Part shown: piece by piece, positions 2,089 to 38,551 of the stretch | How the letters are laid out: every line of letters starts with the position of its first letter | Numbering within the stretch: position 1 is the first letter of the stretch | DNA from: a virus | Lineage: Duplodnaviria; Heunggongvirae; Uroviricota; Caudoviricetes | Reading direction: 5' to 3' (one strand) | IMG/VR virus record: IMGVR_UViG_2778261268_000002 | DNA length: 64,000 nt | Translations under genes and position numbers: made by a program | The notes under the pieces: model-generated | What the model was told of the DNA's origin: nothing | What the model saw: the letters and a program-made list of their open reading frames with translations, nothing else | Database searches by the model: none

Positions 2089-2105
2089 ATTGCTCTAATA
2101 AATAT
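2089..2105 (+). promoter_or_regulatory. C1 operator box
   Basis: ATTGCTCTAATAAATAT. Confidence 0.65.
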
Positions 2106-2176
2106 TGTTTTTTATGTCGTATTTTCGGTACCATTCAGCCATCGCCCTTCAATGGGCATTTGTTTGGAGTCGTCAG

Positions 2177-2461
2177 ATGCAGATGGAGCTAATAAGCCGC
2201 AAAGAGTTCGATAGCCGTGTAACCAGCGGTGAACTCGACAACTTGCAGGCTATCAAGGTGAAAGAAGGCTTTTGCCTCATTGGGAATCAGAGCGGAACAA
2301 ATCGCGTTTTTATGCTTCGCCGTACGGATTTGAAGCCATTTGTCTGGAAGAACGAAATTGGTCCCAGCTCATACGCTCAAACGAGGGGGGGCCACAACCT
2401 GGCCTTTTTCTACAAAGACGAGCTTTCTGTGGTTGATATTCAAGGGTTACAACATGTTTAA
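2177..2461 (+). CDS. hypothetical small protein upstream of the rdgC homolog
   Basis: ORF 2105..2461; internal Met with GGAG spacing chosen as start; a C1 operator box lies just upstream. Confidence 0.4.
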
Positions 2462-3359
2462 GCACTGGAAAAACATTACTATTTATAAACTTTCTCGTGA
2501 GGCGGATCTGACCGACTTAGAAGATAAAAAGAAAATGATCCTTTTCACGCCATGCGGTAGTCAGGATATGGCCAAGTTCGGTTTTGTATCTCCATTTGGT
2601 GATAATTCCGAAGTTATCGCTATGCATGGAAATGGTTTTATCCTTGTTGAAGCAAAGCGCGAAACAAAAATTCTTCCCCCGCCGGTTATCCAGCGAGCTA
2701 TTCAAGAAAAAATTGAAAAACTTGAGCAAGAACAAGCGCGTAAACTGAAGAAAACAGAGAAGGACTCCCTGAAAGACGAAGTTCTGCATTCTCTTCTGCC
2801 ACGAGCTTTTTCAAAGTTTTCTGTTATCCAGGCGATCTACGACGGTTCAACTAAACGTATCTATATCAATGCCAGCGCGCGGCAGGCAGAGGATATGCTC
2901 GCGCTTATGCGTAAGTCTCTGGGTTCTCTTCCTGTTGTTCCCCTGAGTGTTGAAAATCCCATTGAATTAACGCTGACCGACTGGGTACGTGATGCTCGTG
3001 CTCCACAGGGATTTCAAATGGGGGATGCGGCAGAACTTAAGGCAGTGCTTGAGGATGGCGGTATCGCCCGAGTGAAAAAGCAGGATTTGGGAAGCGATGA
3101 AATTTCCACACACCTGGAAGCTGGCAAGCTCGTCACAAAGTTGGCACTCGACTGGCAGAACCGCATTAAATTTACACTGGACCATAACTTCAGCCTTACC
3201 AGCGTCAAATTTGCGGATGAATTGCTTGAGCAGAACTCTGATATTGATAGTGAAGATGTAGCGCAGCGACTGGACGCAGATTTCTTCCTGTTAACCAGTG
3301 AAATTTCGTGCCTGGTTGATGCTCTGGTAAATGCCCTGGGCGGAGAGGCTAAGCAGTGA
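2454..3359 (+). CDS. hrdC: recombination-associated protein RdgC homolog
   Basis: N-terminus ([16 protein letters not shown]...[19 protein letters not shown]) closely resembles E. coli RdgC; start ATG at 2454 in frame with ORF 2340..3359. Confidence 0.85.
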
Positions 3360-5374
3360 GAGAGCTGTGCTATGGATCTGTTTGCAGTGGAATTGAAGCC
3401 GCGAGCATTGCCTGGGAACCGTTGGGTATGCGTCCGGCGTGGTTTGCTGAGATCGAGCCTTTTCCATCTGCCGTTCTTGCGCACCGCTGGCCCCATGTCG
3501 CCAACCTTGGCGACATGACAAAACTCGCCCAAAAAGTCCAGGCAGGAGAAATTGAAGCCCCTGATATGCTCGTCGGGGGTACGCCTTGTCAGGCATTCAG
3601 TATCGCGGGCTTACGTGGTGGGCTTGATGATGAGCGCGGCGCGCTAACTTTGAAGTATGTGGAGCTTGCAAATGCAATTGACGACAAACGGGCTGAGTCC
3701 TTCCTCAAACCAGCAGTTATCGTCTGGGAAAATGTCCCAGGAGTCCTGTCATCAGCAGATAACGCGTTCGGATGTTTCCTTGCCGGATTGGCTGGAGAAG
3801 ATGCGCCATTCGAACCTGGTGATCGACCTGAATCACGAAAAAGTAATACGTTCTGGCGGTGGGATGTCAAAACCGGTTGCCATGCTCCAAAGTGGCCGCA
3901 GTGTGGTTGTATTTATGGACCGCAGCGAAAAGTGGCCTGGAGAATCCTTGATGCCCAATACTTCGGAGTGGCACAACGACGCCGACGCGTGTTTGTTGTC
4001 GCAAGTGCTCGAACAGACCTCGATCCCGCAACGGTACTTTTTGAGTTCGAAGGCGTGCGCCGGAATATTGCGCCGAGCAGAGGCGAGGGGAAGGAAACTA
4101 CCAGATATACTTCAAACATCGCTATCAGAACTTGCGATGATACAAACATAATTGCCATGGCACATGGGCAAGGAGGGGCTGAGATAAAAACCGATAATTC
4201 GGCACCAACTTTGACATGTAACCATGAAGCACCAATTGTATTGCTCGGCGACGGTAGAATGCGCCGTCTTACCCCTGTCGAATGTGAAAGGCTGCAAGGT
4301 TTTCCTGATGGGCATACGTTGATCCCGACGGAAAAGCGTAAAAAAGTTAATTCAGATGAACTGGCATATCTTCGCAATCACTATCCAGATTTAAGCGAAG
4401 AAGAGGTCGCGATGCTTGCAGCTGACGGACCGCGTTACAAAGCGATCGGCAATAGTATGGCAATACCAGTAATGTGCTGGATTGGAGATCGGATTACTAA
4501 GGCCGTATGTCGGCAGAAAGAAGGAAGTGAAACAAAAGAGCGAAAAGTTAAACCAGCGGCAGAATTCGAACGGTCCATATTCAAATGGGCTGGTGGAAAA
4601 TTTGGTGTTCTGGAACAAATCTTTCACTATTTGCCAGAAGGGAAGCGCCTGATTGAACCTTTCGTTGGTGGCGGAGCTGTCTTCATGAATGCCGGATACC
4701 AGGAAAATCTGCTAAATGATGTGAATGCTGACCTGATTAACTTTTACAAGACTCTGCAACGCGAGGCGCATTCACTTATCACTCTGGCACATCGTTTCTT
4801 CCTGGACTACAACACCCAGGAGGGATTCCTGGCAGTACGGAATGCGTTTAACAAACAAGTCTATGATGATTTACATCGCGCAGCGGCGTTTTTGTTCCTG
4901 AACCGACATTGTTTTAATGGATTGACGCGCTACAACCAGGCCGGTGAGTTCAATGTCGGTTATGGGAAGTATAAAACTCCGTATTTCCCATTACAGGAGA
5001 TGGAAGCCTTCCTCGGTGCGGAAGGGCGGTCTGAGTTTGTATGCGGTGATTTTGCAGCAGTGATTGAAGCTGCCGGAGAAGGAGATGTCATCTTTTGCGA
5101 TCCGCCGTATGAACCGCTCCCCAATACAGAGGGGTTTACGAACTATTCCGGTCATGACTTTAAGTTTGAAGAGCAAAAACGCCTGGTGTCTCTGTTGACG
5201 GATGCTCATCGCCGAGGTGCAAAGGTACTCATTACTAACAGTGGCGCGCCAAACGTCAGAGAACTTTATCAGGACAGTGGCTTCAGAGTGGAACCTCTCT
5301 TTGCCAGACGTTCTGTGTCTTGTAAGGGAGACACTCGTGGTGTTGCTCATGACGTTATGGCTATATTGCTCTAA
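3356..5374 (+). CDS. dmt: bifunctional DNA methyltransferase: N-terminal C5-cytosine MTase domain fused to C-terminal Dam-like N6-adenine MTase domain
   Basis: N-terminal half has PCQ ([12 protein letters not shown]) and ENV (VIVWENVPG) motifs; C-terminal half has FKWAGGK and DPPY motifs typical of Dam. Confidence 0.85.
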
Positions 5375-5381
5375 TAAATTT
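5365..5381 (+). promoter_or_regulatory. C1 operator box overlapping dmt stop codon
   Basis: ATTGCTCTAATAAATTT (full consensus). Confidence 0.7.
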
Positions 5382-5557
5382 ATTAGTGTAATATCACCTC
5401 AATGAATCGTGATTTATAGAGCGATTTAGCTGTTAGCCGCGACAGGCGCGGCGGCAAGTATGGCGGGGTAGTGACTCCTTCCCCATCATGACGCCGAGTT
5501 GCCAGGTTGACCATACGCCTAAGTGGCAACACCGAAGTGCGTTACGAGCTTCCAGTT

Positions 5558-5587
5558 TGCCCATCTTCGGGTGGGCGTTTTTTTCAG
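5558..5587 (+). terminator. rho-independent terminator downstream of dmt
   Basis: GC-rich hairpin (gcccatcttcgggtgggc) followed by a run of 7 T; coordinates approximate. Confidence 0.5.
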
Positions 5588-6050
5588 GGTTTTCGTCATG
5601 GTTAGCGACTTTGCGGCGGTTTAGAAACTGACCATTAAAGTAAATGCAAACGATGATCTGATGATGGTAGCGGCCTAAGAAGCCAGACGCCACGGGGTAT
5701 GAGTCGTCCCCCGTCAAAAAATCGACCGCAGAGTGTCCCCGTCTGTGTATTAGGGAACGGGGAGGCACAACAGGTAAGGGCGCTGGTTCGATTAACCAGA
5801 TGAGCGAGAAGGGGTCATCTTTTTGGTCAGCGTCCTTACCTGTTACGTCCTTTTTCATTCTGCGTAACAGCAATTGCTTTTAGCAATTTGAAGATAACGT
5901 CCTACTACGGGTGTATCCCGTCATGCTGAAGGCGCTAATCACGCTGGAAGCCAGGGTTGTGCATCCCCTGTTACCGAATTGCAGCCAGGGCGCGGTGCGC
6001 CGAAAAGCATACGGAGGTGGAAGCCCTCGCCGGAGACGTACCCGGCAAGT

Positions 6051-6126
6051 GATGGTGTAGCTCAGCGGTTAGAGCGGTTGACTGTTAATCAACGGGTCGA
6101 TGGTTCAAATCCATCCACCATCGCCA
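6051..6126 (+). tRNA. tRNA-Asn (anticodon GUU)
   Basis: 76-nt cloverleaf: acceptor GATGGTG/CACCATC, D-arm GCTC/GAGC, anticodon loop CTGTTAA, T-loop TTCAAAT, encoded CCA. Confidence 0.85.
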
Positions 6127-6128
6127 AT

Positions 6129-6204
6129 GCCGGTTTAGCTCAGTTGGTAGAGCGCCTGCCTTGTAAGCAGGATGTCAGCGGTTCGAGTCCGTTAACCGGC
6201 ACCA
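6129..6204 (+). tRNA. tRNA-Thr (anticodon UGU)
   Basis: 76-nt cloverleaf 2 nt after tRNA-Asn: acceptor GCCGGTT/AACCGGC, anticodon loop CTTGTAA, T-loop TTCGAGT, encoded CCA. Confidence 0.85.
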
Positions 6205-6767
6205 GCACAACAGGTAAGGGCATTCTCCCTTATAGGGCTTGGCTTAAATGCATCGAGTGCTCTTACCGTTGTGATGAAGTGCAGCTCTTTGAAGCAACCA
6301 GAAGATAAGCATCTGGCTTCACAACATAAACCGCAGGAACGACCAATAAACGGTAGTCCGTATGGAGAACACCCCGTTGAGGAAGAGGCCTGGCCGGAAC
6401 CGTAACCGGCGACTGGTAATGTGTGTAAATGGAGCGAAATATGTGGGCGTTTAACGGGATACGGGTTGTAACAGCGATTATTAACGGCGAACTTAAGTAT
6501 TCACGTTTCGAGACAAATGAACGTGATGGGAAATGTATTGGTGTGCGGTTAGTAAGAGAATACGCATAACAACTACAACGTTGAGAACACTGGCGTAACG
6601 GGGTCATATCCCAATCTATGAATAAATGTTGCGTTGCAGCGTGACAACCAGTGTTCTCAACATTGTGGTGAATGCACAGGCTGATGTGCCGCAACTACAG
6701 TAGTGCGCGCTTTGCGGGGCTTGCTACAACCCTGTGTCGGAGTTCAGCACCGACCATCACAATCACT

Positions 6768-6854
6768 GGAGAGTAGGGAGCATGGTGCTCAAACGGTCTT
6801 GAAAACCGTCCCATTGCGCAAGCGATGATGGTTCGATTCCATTACTCTCCGCCA
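6768..6854 (+). tRNA. tRNA-like element, possibly tRNA-Ser (anticodon UGA) with long variable arm; D-arm non-canonical
   Basis: 87 nt: acceptor GGAGAGT/ACTCTCC, anticodon stem-loop ACGGT-CTTGAAA-ACCGT (same loop as E. coli tRNA-Ser UGA), T-arm GATGG-TTCGATT-CCATT, discriminator G plus CCA; position 8 is A and the D-loop is short. Confidence 0.5.
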
Positions 6855-6888
6855 GTGCAACGTTAAGAGTATTTGGCTAATTAAGCGA

Positions 6889-7101
6889 ATGCCGGAAGCA
6901 GAACCGGATCACCAAATGCGTACAGGCGTCATCGCCGCCCAGCCAGCCAAGTGCTCTTACCATTGCGGTGAATGCGGCTATGCGCACGCGGAACAGTTAA
7001 AACAATCCTCCTTAGTGGTTAAGTCAAACATCCCGGCGTTAATTGTTAACTGGTTAACGTCACCTGGAGGCACCAGGCACCGCAGCTTTTTTATTCGTTA
7101 A
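6889..7101 (+). CDS. hypothetical small protein (uncertain)
   Basis: 70-aa ORF with ATG; contains one copy of the 27-bp repeat family; could be non-coding. Confidence 0.3.
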   Translation: MPEAEPDHQMRTGVIAAQPAKCSYHCGECGYAHAEQLKQSSLVVKSNIPALIVNWLTSPGGTRHRSFFIR

Positions 7102-7117
7102 ATAATGGAGTGAGAGG

Positions 7118-7354
7118 ATGCAGAACAATCCGAACAAATGTCGAACGCTATGGGTGCGGTTATATATTTATGCCGTCCTCTGTTTGATTGTGTCACTGGT
7201 TCTGTATGTTTGGCTTTTGCCAAATATGATCTCATCTAACAGCACAATACTTGTATTGTTGGGAGTCCTTTTCGCGCTCATTTACCCGGCTTTCGCAGTA
7301 GTCTTTTTTCGTGAAAAAACCAGGAAATTAATTAATGAAAAAAACGTTGATTAG
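7118..7354 (+). CDS. small membrane protein (two predicted TM helices)
   Basis: 78 aa, hydrophobic stretches LYIYAVLCLIVSLVLYVWLL and ILVLLGVLFALIYPAFAVVFF. Confidence 0.5.
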   Translation: MQNNPNKCRTLWVRLYIYAVLCLIVSLVLYVWLLPNMISSNSTILVLLGVLFALIYPAFAVVFFREKTRKLINEKNVD

Positions 7355-8162
7355 TGCAGCGATTATTTTGGGTTCTTTATGTCTGACCGGATGCGATCGG
7401 GTAGAGCCAGGTAACGTAGGGATCAAAGTAAATAAGCTGGGGGATGATAAAGGTATCGGTGAAGTAGTTGGTGTTGGTCGCTACTGGACAGGCTTGAATA
7501 CTGAAGTTTATATCTTCCCGACCTTTAAGCAAATGAAGACATACGATGAGCCGTTCAGCTTCCAGATGAGCGACGGAACAACCATTGGTTACCACATCGG
7601 CGTAGCCTACAAGGTTGATCCAGCAAAAGTCACAACGGTATTTCAGACCTATCGCAAAGGTGTAGATGATATTACTGATACCGATCTACGCCAGAAGGTT
7701 GCAGATGCTCTGAACCGGTTAGCCAGCAAAATGACCACCGACAAATTTATCGACGGTGGCAAATCTGAATTGCTTGATGCAGCCCTTAAAGACATTCAGG
7801 AAGAAATGACGCCAATCGGCATTCAGGTGATGAGCCTCTCTTATGTAGGTAAGCCAGAATATCCGCCAACAGTTATTGACAGTATTAACGCCAAAGTTAC
7901 GGCAAACCAAAAAACCCTGCAACGCGAGCAAGAGGTCAAACAACGTGAAGCAGAGGCCAACATGCTGCGCGCGGAAGCTGCCGGACAGGCTGATGCTATT
8001 CGCACAAAAGCCCAGGCCGAAGCTGATGCCATTCGTTTACGTGGTGAAGCTCTGCGCCAGAACCCCGGTGTTATGGAGTTGGAAGCGATCAACAAATGGA
8101 ACGGTACATTACCGCAGTATATGACCAGTAATGCCGCTGTTCCGTTTGTTCCGGTGAAATAA
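7335..8162 (+). CDS. lipoprotein with SPFH/band-7 (prohibitin-like) domain
   Basis: Lipobox LCLTGC after signal peptide; C-terminal Ala/Glu/Gln-rich coiled region typical of HflK/C-type SPFH proteins. Confidence 0.6.
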   Translation: MKKTLISAAIILGSLCLTGCDRVEPGNVGIKVNKLGDDKGIGEVVGVGRYWTGLNTEVYIFPTFKQMKTYDEPFSFQMSDGTTIGYHIGVAYKVDPAKVTTVFQTYRKGVDDITDTDLRQKVADALNRLASKMTTDKFIDGGKSELLDAALKDIQEEMTPIGIQVMSLSYVGKPEYPPTVIDSINAKVTANQKTLQREQEVKQREAEANMLRAEAAGQADAIRTKAQAEADAIRLRGEALRQNPGVMELEAINKWNGTLPQYMTSNAAVPFVPVK

Positions 8163-8189
8163 AAGCGTAAGCAAAATTGGCAGTAATCC

Positions 8190-8265
8190 GGCCCTTTAGC
8201 TCAGTGGTTAGAGCTGGCGACTCATAATCGCACGGTCACCGGTTCAAGTCCGGTAGGGGCCACCA
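8190..8265 (+). tRNA. tRNA with CAU anticodon, most similar to tRNA-Ile2 (lysidine-type, ileX-like)
   Basis: 76 nt, near-identical in outline to E. coli ileX (GGCCC.TTAGCTCAGTGGTTAGAGC...CTCATAATCG...GGTTCAAGTCC...GGGGCCACCA). Confidence 0.8.
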
Positions 8266-8506: not shown

Positions 8507-8551
8507 ATGCCGATTATATCTGACATTCAGCACGCCTGGGTGGAGTGCTAA
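8507..8551 (+). CDS. putative 14-aa leader ORF translationally coupled to ban (TAATG overlap)
   Basis: AGGAG RBS then ATG; MPIISDIQHAWVEC; stop overlaps the ban ATG; coordinates approximate. Confidence 0.3.
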   Translation: MPIISDIQHAWVEC

Positions 8552-32812: not shown

Positions 32813-34006
32813 GTGACCTGGGACGATCACAAGAAGAATTTTGCTCGCCTGGCGCGAGATGGTGGTTACACCATCGCACAGTATGCCGCCGAGTTTAATC
32901 TTAACCCTAATACTGCACGTCGTTATCTCCGTGCCTTCAAAGAAGACACTAGGACAGCGGACAGCCGCAAGCCAAATAAGCCAGTCAGGAAGCCACTAAA
33001 AAGCATGATCATTGATCACTCTAATGATCAACATGCAGGTGATCACATTGCGGCTGAAATAGCGGAAAAACAAAGGGTTAATGCCGTTGTCAGTGCCGCA
33101 GTCGAGAATGCGAAGCGCCAAAATAAGCGCATAAATGATCGTTCTGATGATCATGACGTGATCACCCGCGCCCACCGGACCTTACGTGATCGCCTGGAAC
33201 GCGACACCCTGGATGATGATGGTGAACGCTTTGAATTCGAAGCTGGCGATTACCTGATAGATAACGTTGAAGCGCGGAAGGCCGCGCGCGCTATGTTGCG
33301 TCGGTCCGGGGCCGATGTTCTGGAAACCACTCTTCTGGAAAAGTCTCTTTCTCATCTCCTTATGCTGGAGAATGCCAGGGATACGTGTATTCGTCTGGTG
33401 CAGGAAATGCGCGATCAGCAAAAAGACGATGATGAAGGGACTCCGCCTGAATATCGTATCGCGAGCATGCTAAACAGCTGTTCCGCGCAGATAAGCAGCC
33501 TGATCAACACCATTTACAGCATCCGGAATAACTATCGAAAAGAAAGCCGGGAGGCGGAAAAGCACGCTTTATCTATGGGGCAAGCTGGCATTGTTAAGCT
33601 GGCATACGAACGAAAGCGTGAAAATAACTGGTCAGTGCTGGAAGCAGCTGAATTCATCGAGGCGCATGGCGGAAAAGTGCCGCCCCTGATGCTGGAGCAA
33701 ATCAAAGCCGATCTGCGTGCTCCTAAGACCAATACCGATGATGAGGAAAGGCAAACAGCCGTCGGTGGCCCTTCTCTTGAAGATCTGGACAAAGTTGCGC
33801 GAGAACGGGCCGCCAACCGCCGCGCCGATGCCGCATTGTGGATTGAGCAGCGTAGGGAAGAAATCGCCGATATCGTTGATACAGGCGGTTATGGAGATGT
33901 TGATACTGAAGGTGTATCAAACGACCCATGGCTGGAACAAGACCTGGACGAAGACGAGGAGGAAGACGAAGAAGTTACCCGCAAGCTATACGGGGATGAT
34001 GATTAA
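32813..34006 (+). CDS. pacA: terminase small (pac-recognition) subunit PacA
   Basis: 397 aa with GTG start; gene body contains the clustered TGATCA hexamers of the pac site. Confidence 0.85.
33006..33164 (+). other. pac packaging site (two clusters of TGATCA/G hexamers carrying GATC Dam sites)
   Basis: Four hexamers at ~33006-33045 and three at ~33136-33164 inside pacA. Confidence 0.75.
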
Positions 34007-37119: not shown

Positions 37120-37195
37120 TGATCAATTTACCTGTAAATCCATACAGTTCAATACCTTATCAGGTCAAATAGTGATCACTTGATCATTTGATCAA
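37120..37195 (+). promoter_or_regulatory. GATC-rich cre promoter region (Dam-methylation sensitive)
   Basis: Four GATC sites within ~75 bp (gatcaattta, agtgatcact tgatcatttgatcaagg) between loxP and cra. Confidence 0.5.
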
Positions 37196-37519: not shown

Positions 37520-38551
37520 ATGTCCAATTTACTGACCGTACACCAAAATTTGCCTGCATTACCGGTCGATGCAACGAGTGATGAGGTTCGCAAGAACCTG
37601 ATGGACATGTTCAGGGATCGCCAGGCGTTTTCTGAGCATACCTGGAAAATGCTTCTGTCCGTTTGCCGGTCGTGGGCGGCATGGTGCAAGTTGAATAACC
37701 GGAAATGGTTTCCCGCAGAACCTGAAGATGTTCGCGATTACCTTCTATATCTTCAGGCGCGTGGTCTGGCAGTAAAAACTATCCAGCAACATTTGGGCCA
37801 GCTAAACATGCTTCATCGTCGGTCCGGGCTGCCACGACCAAGTGACAGCAATGCTGTTTCACTGGTCATGCGACGGATCCGAAAAGAAAACGTTGATGCC
37901 GGTGAACGTGCAAAACAGGCACTGGCGTTCGAACGCACTGATTTCGACCAGGTTCGTTCACTCATGGAAAATAGCGATCGCTGCCAGGATATACGTAATC
38001 TGGCATTTCTGGGGATTGCTTATAACACCCTGTTACGTATAGCCGAAATTGCCAGGATCAGGGTTAAAGATATCTCACGTACAGACGGTGGGAGAATGTT
38101 AATCCATATTGGCAGAACGAAAACGCTGGTTAGTACCGCGGGTGTAGAGAAGGCACTTAGCCTGGGGGTAACTAAACTGGTCGAGCGATGGATTTCTGTC
38201 TCTGGTGTGGCTGATGATCCGAATAACTACTTGTTTTGCCGTGTCAGAAAAAATGGCGTAGCTGCGCCATCTGCCACAAGCCAGCTATCAACTCGCGCCC
38301 TGGAAGGGATTTTTGAAGCAACTCATCGATTGATTTACGGCGCTAAGGATGACTCTGGTCAGAGATACCTGGCCTGGTCTGGACACAGTGCCCGTGTCGG
38401 AGCCGCGCGAGATATGGCCCGCGCCGGAGTTTCAATACCGGAGATCATGCAAGCTGGTGGCTGGACCAACGTAAATATTGTCATGAACTATATCCGTAAC
38501 CTGGATAGTGAAACAGGGGCAATGGTGCGCCTGCTGGAAGGTGGCGATTAG
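37520..38551 (+). CDS. cre: Cre site-specific tyrosine recombinase
   Basis: 343 aa beginning MSNLLTVHQNLPALPVDATSDEVRKNLMDMFRDRQAFSEHTWKMLLSVCRSWAAWCKLNNRKWFPAEPEDVRDYLLYLQARGLAVKTIQQHLGQLNMLHRRSGLPRPSDSNAVSLVMRRIRKEN...; matches Cre throughout as recalled. Confidence 0.97.
   Translation: MSNLLTVHQNLPALPVDATSDEVRKNLMDMFRDRQAFSEHTWKMLLSVCRSWAAWCKLNNRKWFPAEPEDVRDYLLYLQARGLAVKTIQQHLGQLNMLHRRSGLPRPSDSNAVSLVMRRIRKENVDAGERAKQALAFERTDFDQVRSLMENSDRCQDIRNLAFLGIAYNTLLRIAEIARIRVKDISRTDGGRMLIHIGRTKTLVSTAGVEKALSLGVTKLVERWISVSGVADDPNNYLFCRVRKNGVAAPSATSQLSTRALEGIFEATHRLIYGAKDDSGQRYLAWSGHSARVGAARDMARAGVSIPEIMQAGGWTNVNIVMNYIRNLDSETGAMVRLLEGGD

Follow-up and report, generated by a model that had tools for sequence, protein, structure and literature searches.

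A P7-type allele of the phage dmt gene, predicted to encode a fused C5-cytosine and N6-adenine DNA methyltransferase

A long open reading frame (ORF) in a 64,000-nucleotide stretch of tailed-phage DNA (hereafter the window) raises the question of whether one polypeptide carries two functional DNA methyltransferases, and of how such an enzyme would be controlled and used. The ORF begins with GTG, encodes 672 aa and contains zero internal stops, as read from the sequence. The original prediction was that of an orphan enzyme in which a C5-cytosine half is followed by a Dam-like adenine half. Pfam and NCBIfam agreed on two intact domains in this order, and both catalytic motif sets (PCQ/ENV and FKWAGGK/DPPY) were complete in the ORF. 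The orphan state was also confirmed by the neighbouring genes, which are uhr and hrdC upstream and tRNAs downstream, with no nuclease gene among them. The ORF had been presented as noteworthy in itself, but it is already annotated as dmt or dam in P1 and P7, respectively; by alignment, it is a P7-type allele of the catalogued dmt gene (dam in P7) of P1-family phage-plasmids. The PHROG profile phrog_116 (779 positions) covers both halves of Dmt, and dmt was found in 498 PLSDB plasmids. Purifying selection was detected on both halves by dN/dS among seven alleles, with values of mostly 0.06-0.25 for the C5 residues 2-236 (a few low-count pairs up to 0.52) and of about 0.1 or less for the Dam half except for one pair. 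Taken jointly, the identity, architecture, regulation and Dam function proposed here for dmt (features in Table 1) are very likely to be correct.

Table 1. Coordinates of dmt, its domains, the flanking transcription units and the GATC-rich sites in the window
Feature	Position	Strand	Basis
Odmt (former Op68), monovalent C1 operator of the uhr-hrdC-dmt operon	2089..2105	+	1 mismatch to consensus; identical to P1 Odmt and P7 Op(dam)
Pdmt, sigma-70 promoter; -35 TTGTTT 2105-2110, -10 TACCAT 2129-2134	2105..2134	+	P1 annotation transferred; both hexamers identical in P1 and P7
uhr, 94 aa, first operon gene	2177..2461	+	coordinates from P1 and P7
hrdC, RdgC-family recombination-associated protein	2454..3359	+	PF04381 RdgC, E=2e-97; P1 and P7 annotation
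dmt (P7 'dam'), fused C5-cytosine/N6-adenine DNA methyltransferase, P7-type allele	3356..5374	+	profile searches; alignment to P7 Dam and P1 Dmt
C5-cytosine methyltransferase domain, aa 1-385; motifs I, IV, VI, VIII, IX, X	3356..4510	+	PF00145, TIGR00675, M.HhaI match, Foldseek
PCQ motif, catalytic Cys78; empty intein homing site in the window allele	3584..3592	+	sequence read; intein alleles compared
Variable (target-recognition) region, aa 241-302; short P7 type with SAPTLTCNH	4076..4261	+	allele comparison
Charged inter-domain linker, aa 386-408	4511..4579	+	between the two Pfam/PDB matches; AlphaFold pLDDT <50 at residues 388-407
Dam-family N6-adenine methyltransferase domain, aa 409-672; DPPY at 5099-5110	4580..5371	+	PF02086, TIGR00571, 2G1P alignment, Foldseek
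Oban-ab (former Op72ab), bivalent C1 operator; a 5365-5381 (+), 0 mismatches; b 5376-5392 (-), 2 mismatches	5365..5392	.	consensus scan; P1 and P7 annotation (tRNA/ban operon)
P1ban promoter; -35 TTGCTC 5366-5371, 17-nt spacer, -10 TAATAT 5389-5394; towards tRNA-Asn/Thr ... ban	5366..5394	+	P1 annotation transferred; sequence read
pac site region, Dam-half substrate; 4 GATC hexamers, ~90 bp, 3 (+1) GATC hexamers	33006..33190	+	sequence read; in pacA by relatives' annotation
GATC cluster between loxP and cre (cre ORF 37520-38551)	37120..37195	+	GATC scan, sequence

The C-terminal half was assigned by both profile collections. PF02086 scored 192.2 bits against a cut-off of 22 (E=2e-56; residues 411-644 on profile positions 1-243 of 253), and TIGR00571 scored 248.6 bits against a cut-off of 114.85 (profile positions 3-265 of 267). 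The motifs were read as FKWAGGK (aa 409, nt 4580-4600), PFVGGGAV (aa 435-442, with FVGGG at aa 436) and DPPY (aa 582-585). An end-to-end alignment with E. coli Dam (2G1P) was obtained at E=5e-58 and a match to DpnM (2DPM) at 2e-43, and Foldseek matched the C half to Dam and DpnM, with E. coli Dam at the top. The score for NF008152, the NCBIfam equivalog of the host Dam, was 242.8 bits and below its cut-off of 441; the Dam half is a phage paralogue and not the host gene. P134 of E. coli Dam contacts the third base pair. Together with K9, Y119, N120, L122 and R124, it is said to have been described by Horton and colleagues in 2006 as a GATC-contact residue. K9, N120, L122 and R124 are kept in the window Dmt as K410, N521, L523 and R525, respectively, and Y138 is kept as well. 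Y119 and P134 are replaced by F520 and G535, respectively; P1 Dmt, a GATC methylator according to its annotation, has the identical residues. The C-terminal domain, closely related to E. coli Dam, would methylate the adenine in GATC.

GATC-rich sites lie elsewhere in the window. The richness in GATC that had been claimed for pac and for the cre promoter was recovered at both places (Table 1), and the pac region is the densest GATC cluster of the window, with eight in 200 bp. The proposed link between Dmt and pac agrees with a function documented for the P1 enzyme, in that pac cleavage and efficient progeny need methylation by either the host Dam or the phage Dmt (Sternberg & Coulby 1990, as cited in PMC12707154 and PMC11437467), and the gene is dispensable when the host is Dam+ (PMC10695390). 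Dam methylation of pac for packaging is the only documented role of Dmt. With Dmt, the phage would bring its own GATC methylation to the stage that follows induction or infection; the 7-8 GATC elements of pac would thereby become fully methylated and then open to cleavage by the pacase, irrespective of the host's Dam status.

For the N-terminal half, PF00145 scored 123.1 bits against a cut-off of 22 (Pfam) and TIGR00675 scored 115.6 bits against a cut-off of 100.65 (NCBIfam). A sequence match to M.HhaI was obtained at 3e-10 over motifs IV-VI and IX, and M.HhaI, M.HaeIII and DNMT3 were matched by Foldseek. Motif IV (GGTPCQ, aa 74-79, with PCQ at aa 77-79), motif VI (WENVPG, aa 124-129, with ENV at aa 125-127, nt 3728-3736) and motif VIII (QRRRRVF, aa 207-213) were each aligned with the corresponding M.HhaI motif, and motifs IX and X were found at aa 303-317 and in GNSMAIPV (aa 365-372, with GNS at aa 365), respectively. 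Motif I reads VCSGIEAAS (CSGIE at aa 10), in which the second Gly of FxGxG is replaced by Glu; it falls within the Pfam alignment (profile positions 5-119), and the CSGIE variant is near-invariant in 64 homologues. Also invariant in these homologues, many of which are stand-alone prophage C5 methyltransferases, are G74, beside the catalytic loop, and most of the motif residues. We consider it reasonably likely that the C5 half is catalytically active.

The target of such an activity would be set by the short variable region, the only segment that differs grossly among the P7/window, P1, SJ46 and pEC190329_2 alleles. In P1-family alleles this region is a mosaic of common blocks; the window allele consists of one block of ~60 aa, and the short P7 type was found in 184 PLSDB plasmids. 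Its SAPTLTCNH (aa 282-290) aligns with TLSAYGGG of M.HhaI. When the region was compared with solved methyltransferases, matches were obtained to motif IX only and none to the recognition loops (E >= 0.1). The AlphaFold model of Dmt, built from 64 sequences, had a pLDDT of 67 overall and of less than 50 in the variable region, and was of no use for specificity. Paralogy between the blocks of different alleles, as expected of tandem modules, was not significant: Smith-Waterman scores against shuffles were mostly z<3, too low to demonstrate multispecificity, and only identical block types matched each other (B between window and SJ46, z=26; D between SJ46 and pEC, z=30). Several tandem target-recognition modules of the SPR/phi3T type were not found in the single ~60-aa block of the window allele.

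The catalytic cysteine is also the site of an intein in other alleles. In RCS47 and OP279344, an intein of 341 aa with Hint and LAGLIDADG domains lies between P77 and C78, and an intein at this cysteine, which looks splicing-competent, was found in 133 plasmids. It is absent from the window, where GGTPCQ is uninterrupted, and a published Dmt intein was not found in the literature searched. Inteins usually persist at such sites in functional genes. A speculative but possible reading of these mosaics is that the C5 half is a fast-evolving anti-restriction module built from cassettes, in which target-recognition blocks are swapped among alleles and the catalytic Cys is parasitised by the intein; the P1, SJ46 and pEC190329_2 alleles, with several blocks, might be multispecific, and the window allele would be minimal, monospecific and probably active. 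As part of the same speculative reading, G74W in the laboratory P1 reference, a change at an invariant position, may be why m5C activity escaped notice for decades.

With respect to expression, the window has the locus conserved in P1 and P7, namely Odmt-Pdmt, uhr, hrdC, dmt, Oban-ab, tRNA-Asn, tRNA-Thr, ... ban, with the tRNAs at 6051-6204 and the DnaB-like ban gene at 8545-9915. Zero Pfam matches were obtained for uhr. The GTG start of dmt shares GTGA with the TGA of the preceding RdgC-family gene, and GGAGAGG lies 7 nt 5' of it. Operator-like sites with three or fewer mismatches numbered 14 in the window, against 0.19 expected by chance, and Odmt among them lies 1.27 kb upstream of dmt. Neither Pdmt nor Pban was recovered by a simple sigma-70 consensus scan, and both calls therefore rest on homology to the annotated P1 promoters. 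A DicF-like RNA 3' of dmt was not detected at the Rfam gathering threshold, although a 'dicF-like region' is annotated there in P1. According to this arrangement, dmt would be the last gene of the uhr-hrdC-dmt operon and would be transcribed from Pdmt, its translation is probably coupled to that of hrdC via the GTGA overlap, and the operon would be silenced in the lysogen by C1 repressor bound to Odmt.

Three other explanations bear on this picture. One is that only the Dam half works, with the C5 half being either a relic without activity or an appendage for DNA binding or structure. Neither m5C activity nor a target sequence was found for any dmt allele, those of P1 and P7 included, in the literature searched, and the GenBank notes for P1 Dmt and P7 Dam describe a bifunctional enzyme with N6-adenine and only 'perhaps' C5-cytosine activity. 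The sequenced laboratory P1 has W at position 74 by the PCQ loop, where the window allele and the 64 homologues have G; P1vir and one other phage are viable with a disrupted or split gene; and motif I departs from FxGxG. Against a relic stand the intact state of every catalytic motif in the window allele, the invariance of the motif residues even in stand-alone prophage enzymes, the dN/dS of the C5 core, which is similar to that of the Dam half, and the maintenance of an in-frame intein at the catalytic Cys. A relic is thus regarded as unlikely, and a functional C5 half is preferred as an inference; against it count the failure of the literature searches to find a report of m5C, and a variable region that has no significant match to solved methyltransferases and is modelled with low confidence.

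The second explanation, rather improbable in our view, is that the C5 and Dam enzymes are normally two separate polypeptides, of which the Dam one is expressed from an internal promoter and start (e.g. M353, M368 or M373). The P7 annotation predicts a late promoter within the gene, LPdam2, which lies 5' of in-frame ATGs; dmt of vB_EcoM-673R5 is annotated as three CDSs, of which a 320-aa 'DNA adenine methylase' starts at the equivalent of M353; and the gene is listed as dmt-A and dmt-B in P1vir. From the split genes of these two phages it follows that the fusion is not obligatory for Dam function. The -22 box of LPdam2 (AAGTTTCTT in P7), however, is not kept in the window, where the sequence is AAGTTAATT as in P1, which has no annotated late promoter, and LPdam2 was rejected as a route to a separate Dam in the window. 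The frame is open over the junction in hundreds of plasmids and in several allele lengths, the linker codons are conserved, the PHROG profile covers the entire fusion, and independent fusions of a C5 enzyme with a PF05869-type Dam exist, which suggests that the fused state itself is selected. A single polypeptide is therefore preferred, in which two independently folded AdoMet-dependent domains would be joined by a charged and probably flexible linker of ~20 residues. The third explanation concerns the C1 operator at the stop codon. The full-consensus site that had been predicted there was found as ATTGCTCTAATAAATTT at 5365-5381 with 0 mismatches and with the TAA (5372-5374) inside it. The wording of that prediction implies an operator of dmt itself, which might act in the lysogen by roadblock or attenuation, since the site covers the last 10 nt of the ORF and a bound repressor could in principle keep transcription from Pdmt from running on into the ban operon. 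Both P1 and P7, however, have it on record as Oban-a (former Op72a), which forms with the inverted Oban-b a bivalent site over the -35 and -10 hexamers of the downstream-pointing ban promoters. Moreover, dmt has its own Odmt and Pdmt, conserved base for base, and synthesis of Dmt would not be prevented by a block at its very last codons. Control of dmt by this operator is accordingly considered highly unlikely; as judged from position and annotation, the site is an element of the transcription unit that follows (Oban/Pban), and dmt is not under its control.

The most likely role of the N-terminal C5 domain would be the pre-methylation of replicating phage DNA against host restriction enzymes, an anti-restriction assignment that we hold tentatively, as plausible rather than probable. 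An enzyme producing m5C could be a liability in McrBC+ hosts. The dmt gene is a known one, and the operator at its end is that of the neighbouring ban operon. P1-family phage-plasmids are common in E. coli and carry resistance genes (dmt was found in 493 of 5426 complete E. coli genomes, ~9%). Knowledge of which restriction systems are evaded by each dmt allele would help explain the host range of these phage-plasmids and would also be of help where P1 serves as a delivery vector.

Among known systems, E. coli Dam and DpnM have DPPY, the N-terminal KWAGGK and most of the GATC-contact residues in common with the C half of Dmt, which differs from E. coli Dam in its identity of only ~38% and in its fusion to another enzyme. 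The monospecific C5 enzymes of the M.HhaI/M.HaeIII type have in common with Dmt the motif order I-X, the PCQ/ENV/QxRxR/GN(S) set and a similarly sized variable region containing a T-L dipeptide, and the C5 half of Dmt differs from them by an identity of only ~16-20%, by an insertion of ~45 aa between motifs VI and VIII and by the CSGIE form of motif I. The Bacillus phage enzymes SPR, phi3T, rho11s and H2 are phage-encoded orphan C5 enzymes and are thought to pre-empt restriction. The variable regions of the multispecific Bacillus enzymes are described, in PMC12707154, as assembled from exchangeable modules, to which the block mosaic of P1-family dmt alleles is comparable; unlike Dmt, these enzymes have no Dam fusion, and the window allele is limited to a single short block.

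The closest relatives are the enzymes of P1 and P7. P1 Dmt (AAQ14041.1; AF234172 66412-68676; 754 aa) is an orthologue with the same locus and operon and with 90% aa identity including gaps. All gap-containing difference lies within the variable region, which in P1 differs from that of the window and is 82 aa longer, and which probably confers a different or additional m5C specificity; outside it the two proteins are near-identical, the Dam half differing at 8 of 264 residues. P7 Dam (AAQ07538.1; AF503408 68963-70981) is also of 672 aa and is 98% identical to the window Dmt in amino acids and 98.5% in nucleotides. The 13 substitutions include G319, E326, N332 and C374 of the window, which are W, G, S and R, respectively, in P7. 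The short variable region, the GTG start overlapping hrdC, the Oban on the stop codon and the flanking genes of P7 Dam are as in the window, and the synteny of Odmt, uhr, hrdC, dmt, Oban, tRNA-Asn and tRNA-Thr is identical.

The dmt gene (dam in phage P7), encoding a C5-cytosine and N6-adenine DNA methyltransferase fused in one polypeptide, was read from the sequence as an uninterrupted ORF of 672 codons with no internal stop. Its GTG start codon shares bases with the stop codon (TGA) of the preceding gene, giving GTGA, and is preceded by a Shine-Dalgarno sequence (GGAGAGG) 7 nt 5'. The product was matched above cut-off by Pfam (PF00145, 123 bits, and PF02086, 192 bits; cut-off 22 for each) and by NCBIfam (TIGR00675 and TIGR00571), for the N-terminal C5-cytosine domain (C5 half) and the C-terminal Dam-like domain (Dam half). 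Every catalytic motif named in the original prediction was present and further ones were added, and its structural description of a fused methylase is correct. The AlphaFold model (mean pLDDT 67) supports an architecture in which the two domains fold separately and are connected by a linker of low model confidence at residues 388-407.

Operon elements upstream of dmt, operator and promoter elements at its 3' end, and motifs of its product (locus order from the P1 and P7 annotations)
Feature	Position	Basis
Odmt (former Op68), C1 repressor operator	2089-2105	Sequence identical to P1
Pdmt -35 / -10, operon promoter	2105-2110 / 2129-2134	Sequence identical to P1
uhr	2177-2461	P1/P7 comparison
hrdC	2454-3359	PF04381 RdgC, E=2e-97
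dmt	3356-5374 (+)	ORF, P1/P7 comparison
dmt TAA stop	5372-5374	
Oban half a	5365-5381	0 mismatches
Oban half b, inverted	5376-5392	2 mismatches
ban -35 TTGCTC	5366-5371	
ban -10 TAATAT	5389-5394	
C5-half motif CSGIE	aa 10	Read from sequence
C5-half motif GGTPCQ	aa 74-79	Read from sequence
C5-half motif WENVPG	aa 124-129	Read from sequence
C5-half motif QRRRRVF	aa 207-213	Read from sequence
C5-half motif, 15 residues	aa 303-317	Read from sequence
C5-half motif GNSMAIPV	aa 365-372	Read from sequence
Dam-half motif FKWAGGK	aa 409-415	Read from sequence
Dam-half motif PFVGGGAV	aa 435-442	Read from sequence
Dam-half motif DPPY	aa 582-585	Read from sequence

The ORF was assigned by megablast to P1-family phages (Punavirus), with 98.5% identity to P7 'dam' over the full length and about 97% identity to P1 'dmt' across 91% of the ORF length. 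In GenBank, the P7 gene is noted as a 'hypothetical bifunctional DNA methyltransferase' for N6 adenine 'and perhaps C5 cytosine residues', and P1 Dmt as a 'bifunctional DNA methyltransferase' for N6 adenine in GATC 'and perhaps at C5 cytosine'. Since the gene is annotated in the P1 and P7 records, one PHROG family profile (phrog_116) covers both halves, and copies were counted on 498 PLSDB plasmids as well as in 493 of the 5426 complete E. coli genomes (nearly always plasmid-borne), the fusion is common and already catalogued; the feature is real and intact, and is the dmt/dam gene already known from P1 and P7. Split versions were given as two genes in P1vir (dmt-A and dmt-B, each scoring non-essential; PMC10695390) and as three CDSs in vB_EcoM-673R5; they reflect disruption of the gene, in nature or in the laboratory, or else frameshift errors of sequencing. 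Homologues of the C5 half (P0046, P0101, P0105 and P0111-P0113) were fused to another adenine methyltransferase family, the phage-type Dam PF05869, and therefore C5 and N6-adenine fusions arose more than once.

Residues 405-670 gave a full-length alignment with E. coli Dam (2G1P; E=5e-58), and the Dam half also matched DpnM (E=2e-43). K9, Y119, N120, L122, R124 and P134 of E. coli Dam reportedly act as GATC-contact residues (Horton et al. 2006). K9, N120, L122, R124 and Y138 are kept in the Dam half, whereas Y119 is replaced by Phe and P134 by Gly; P1 Dmt, differing from the window allele at 8 of 264 Dam-half positions, carries the same residues, both changes included. P1 Dmt methylates GATC according to its record and to passages in reviews, in which pac cleavage and efficient progeny are described as needing methylation by host Dam or phage Dmt (Sternberg & Coulby 1990, cited in PMC12707154 and PMC11437467); dmt is dispensable in a Dam+ host (PMC10695390). 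The densest GATC cluster of the window was located at 33006-33190 in pacA (four hexamers separated by about 90 bp from a further 3+1) and a second one at 37120-37195 between loxP and cre, so that the proposed GATC richness was borne out at both places. The pac cluster is the substrate of the Dam half, and its link to GATC methylation agrees with documented P1 function. GATC showed no other enrichment (270 sites versus about 250 expected for the window; 8 versus 7.9 for dmt). One GATC sits within the DPPY codons (5099-5102, GCGATCCG).

The C5 half matched M.HhaI and M.HaeIII across the catalytic motifs in sequence and fold searches, and most motif residues were invariant among 64 homologues, including many stand-alone prophage C5 methyltransferases. 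Among seven alleles, dN/dS was mostly 0.06-0.25 for C5 residues 2-236 and about 0.1 for most pairs in the Dam half. The intact motifs, the invariant residues and this similarity in dN/dS argue for a C5 half that is probably functional. Its anti-restriction role is a reasonable inference rather than a finding, because literature searches turned up neither m5C activity nor a recognition sequence, the variable region had no significant similarity to the recognition loops of solved enzymes, and that region was modelled at pLDDT <50. G74, beside the catalytic loop, is conserved in the window (3575-3577), P7, RCS47, SJ46 and 64/64 aligned homologues, and is Trp (LVWGTPCQ) in sequenced laboratory P1 (AF234172), a change which might be an inactivating laboratory-strain defect of the C5 domain.

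Fourteen operator-like sites were found in the window at ≤3 mismatches to the C1 consensus ATTGCTCTAATAAATTT (0.19 expected). The predicted overlap of one perfect site with the dmt stop was confirmed, but by P1/P7 comparison this site forms half a of a bivalent operator, Oban-ab (former Op72ab). Since Oban-ab overlaps the ban promoters, which point away from dmt to the genes for tRNA-Asn and tRNA-Thr and the more distant DnaB-like ban, the implied link to dmt is not supported, and the operator had been assigned to the wrong unit. The internal late promoter LPdam2 predicted in P7 was not conserved in the window (-22 box AAGTTTCTT in P7 versus AAGTTAATT in the window and P1). Shortly 3' of dmt, where P1 annotates a 'dicF-like region' (5489-5590), a strong terminator-like hairpin was observed at 5558-5577 (+), although Rfam gave no match at gathering threshold across 5489-5590. 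The region 3' of tRNA-Thr differs among the phages, with plp/upl/tciABC in P1, terB in P7 and a tRNA-Ser/SPFH cassette in the window. This cassette, between tRNA-Thr and tRNA-Met(CAT)/trnI (6205-8190), comprises tRNA-Ser(TGA) (6768-6854), a 78-aa ORF and a 275-aa SPFH/Band-7 protein (7335-8162); RCS47 shares it, as do some other P1-like phages.

The dmt alleles were near-identical except at two places, both within the C5 half. One is a 341-aa intein (Pfam Hint_2, LAGLIDADG_3 homing endonuclease and Intein_splicing) lying exactly before the catalytic Cys78, between P77 and C78 of PCQ (GGTP|CFTAGH...VVHN|CQAFS). It was carried by RCS47 (FO818745; 532-1554 of its locus L003), OP279344 (same position) and 133 PLSDB plasmids. 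In the window allele the site is empty (3584-3592), and nothing on a dmt intein was found in the literature. The other is a mosaic region between motifs VIII and IX (window 4076-4261 versus P1 locus L002 3221-3652; also the relatives' loci L006 and L007). The P7/window allele (672 aa) has a single short block, the P1 allele (754 aa) a different and longer region, SJ46 (807 aa) the P7 block with others, and pEC190329_2 (862 aa) the P1 block with SJ46 blocks; P7-type and P1-type blocks were counted in 184 and 257 PLSDB plasmids, respectively. Paralogy between the different blocks had no statistical support. The mosaic suggests that target-recognition modules are exchanged between alleles and that the enzymes may be multispecific. 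The layout of P1-family alleles resembles that of multispecific Bacillus-phage C5 methyltransferases, with one block only in the window allele.
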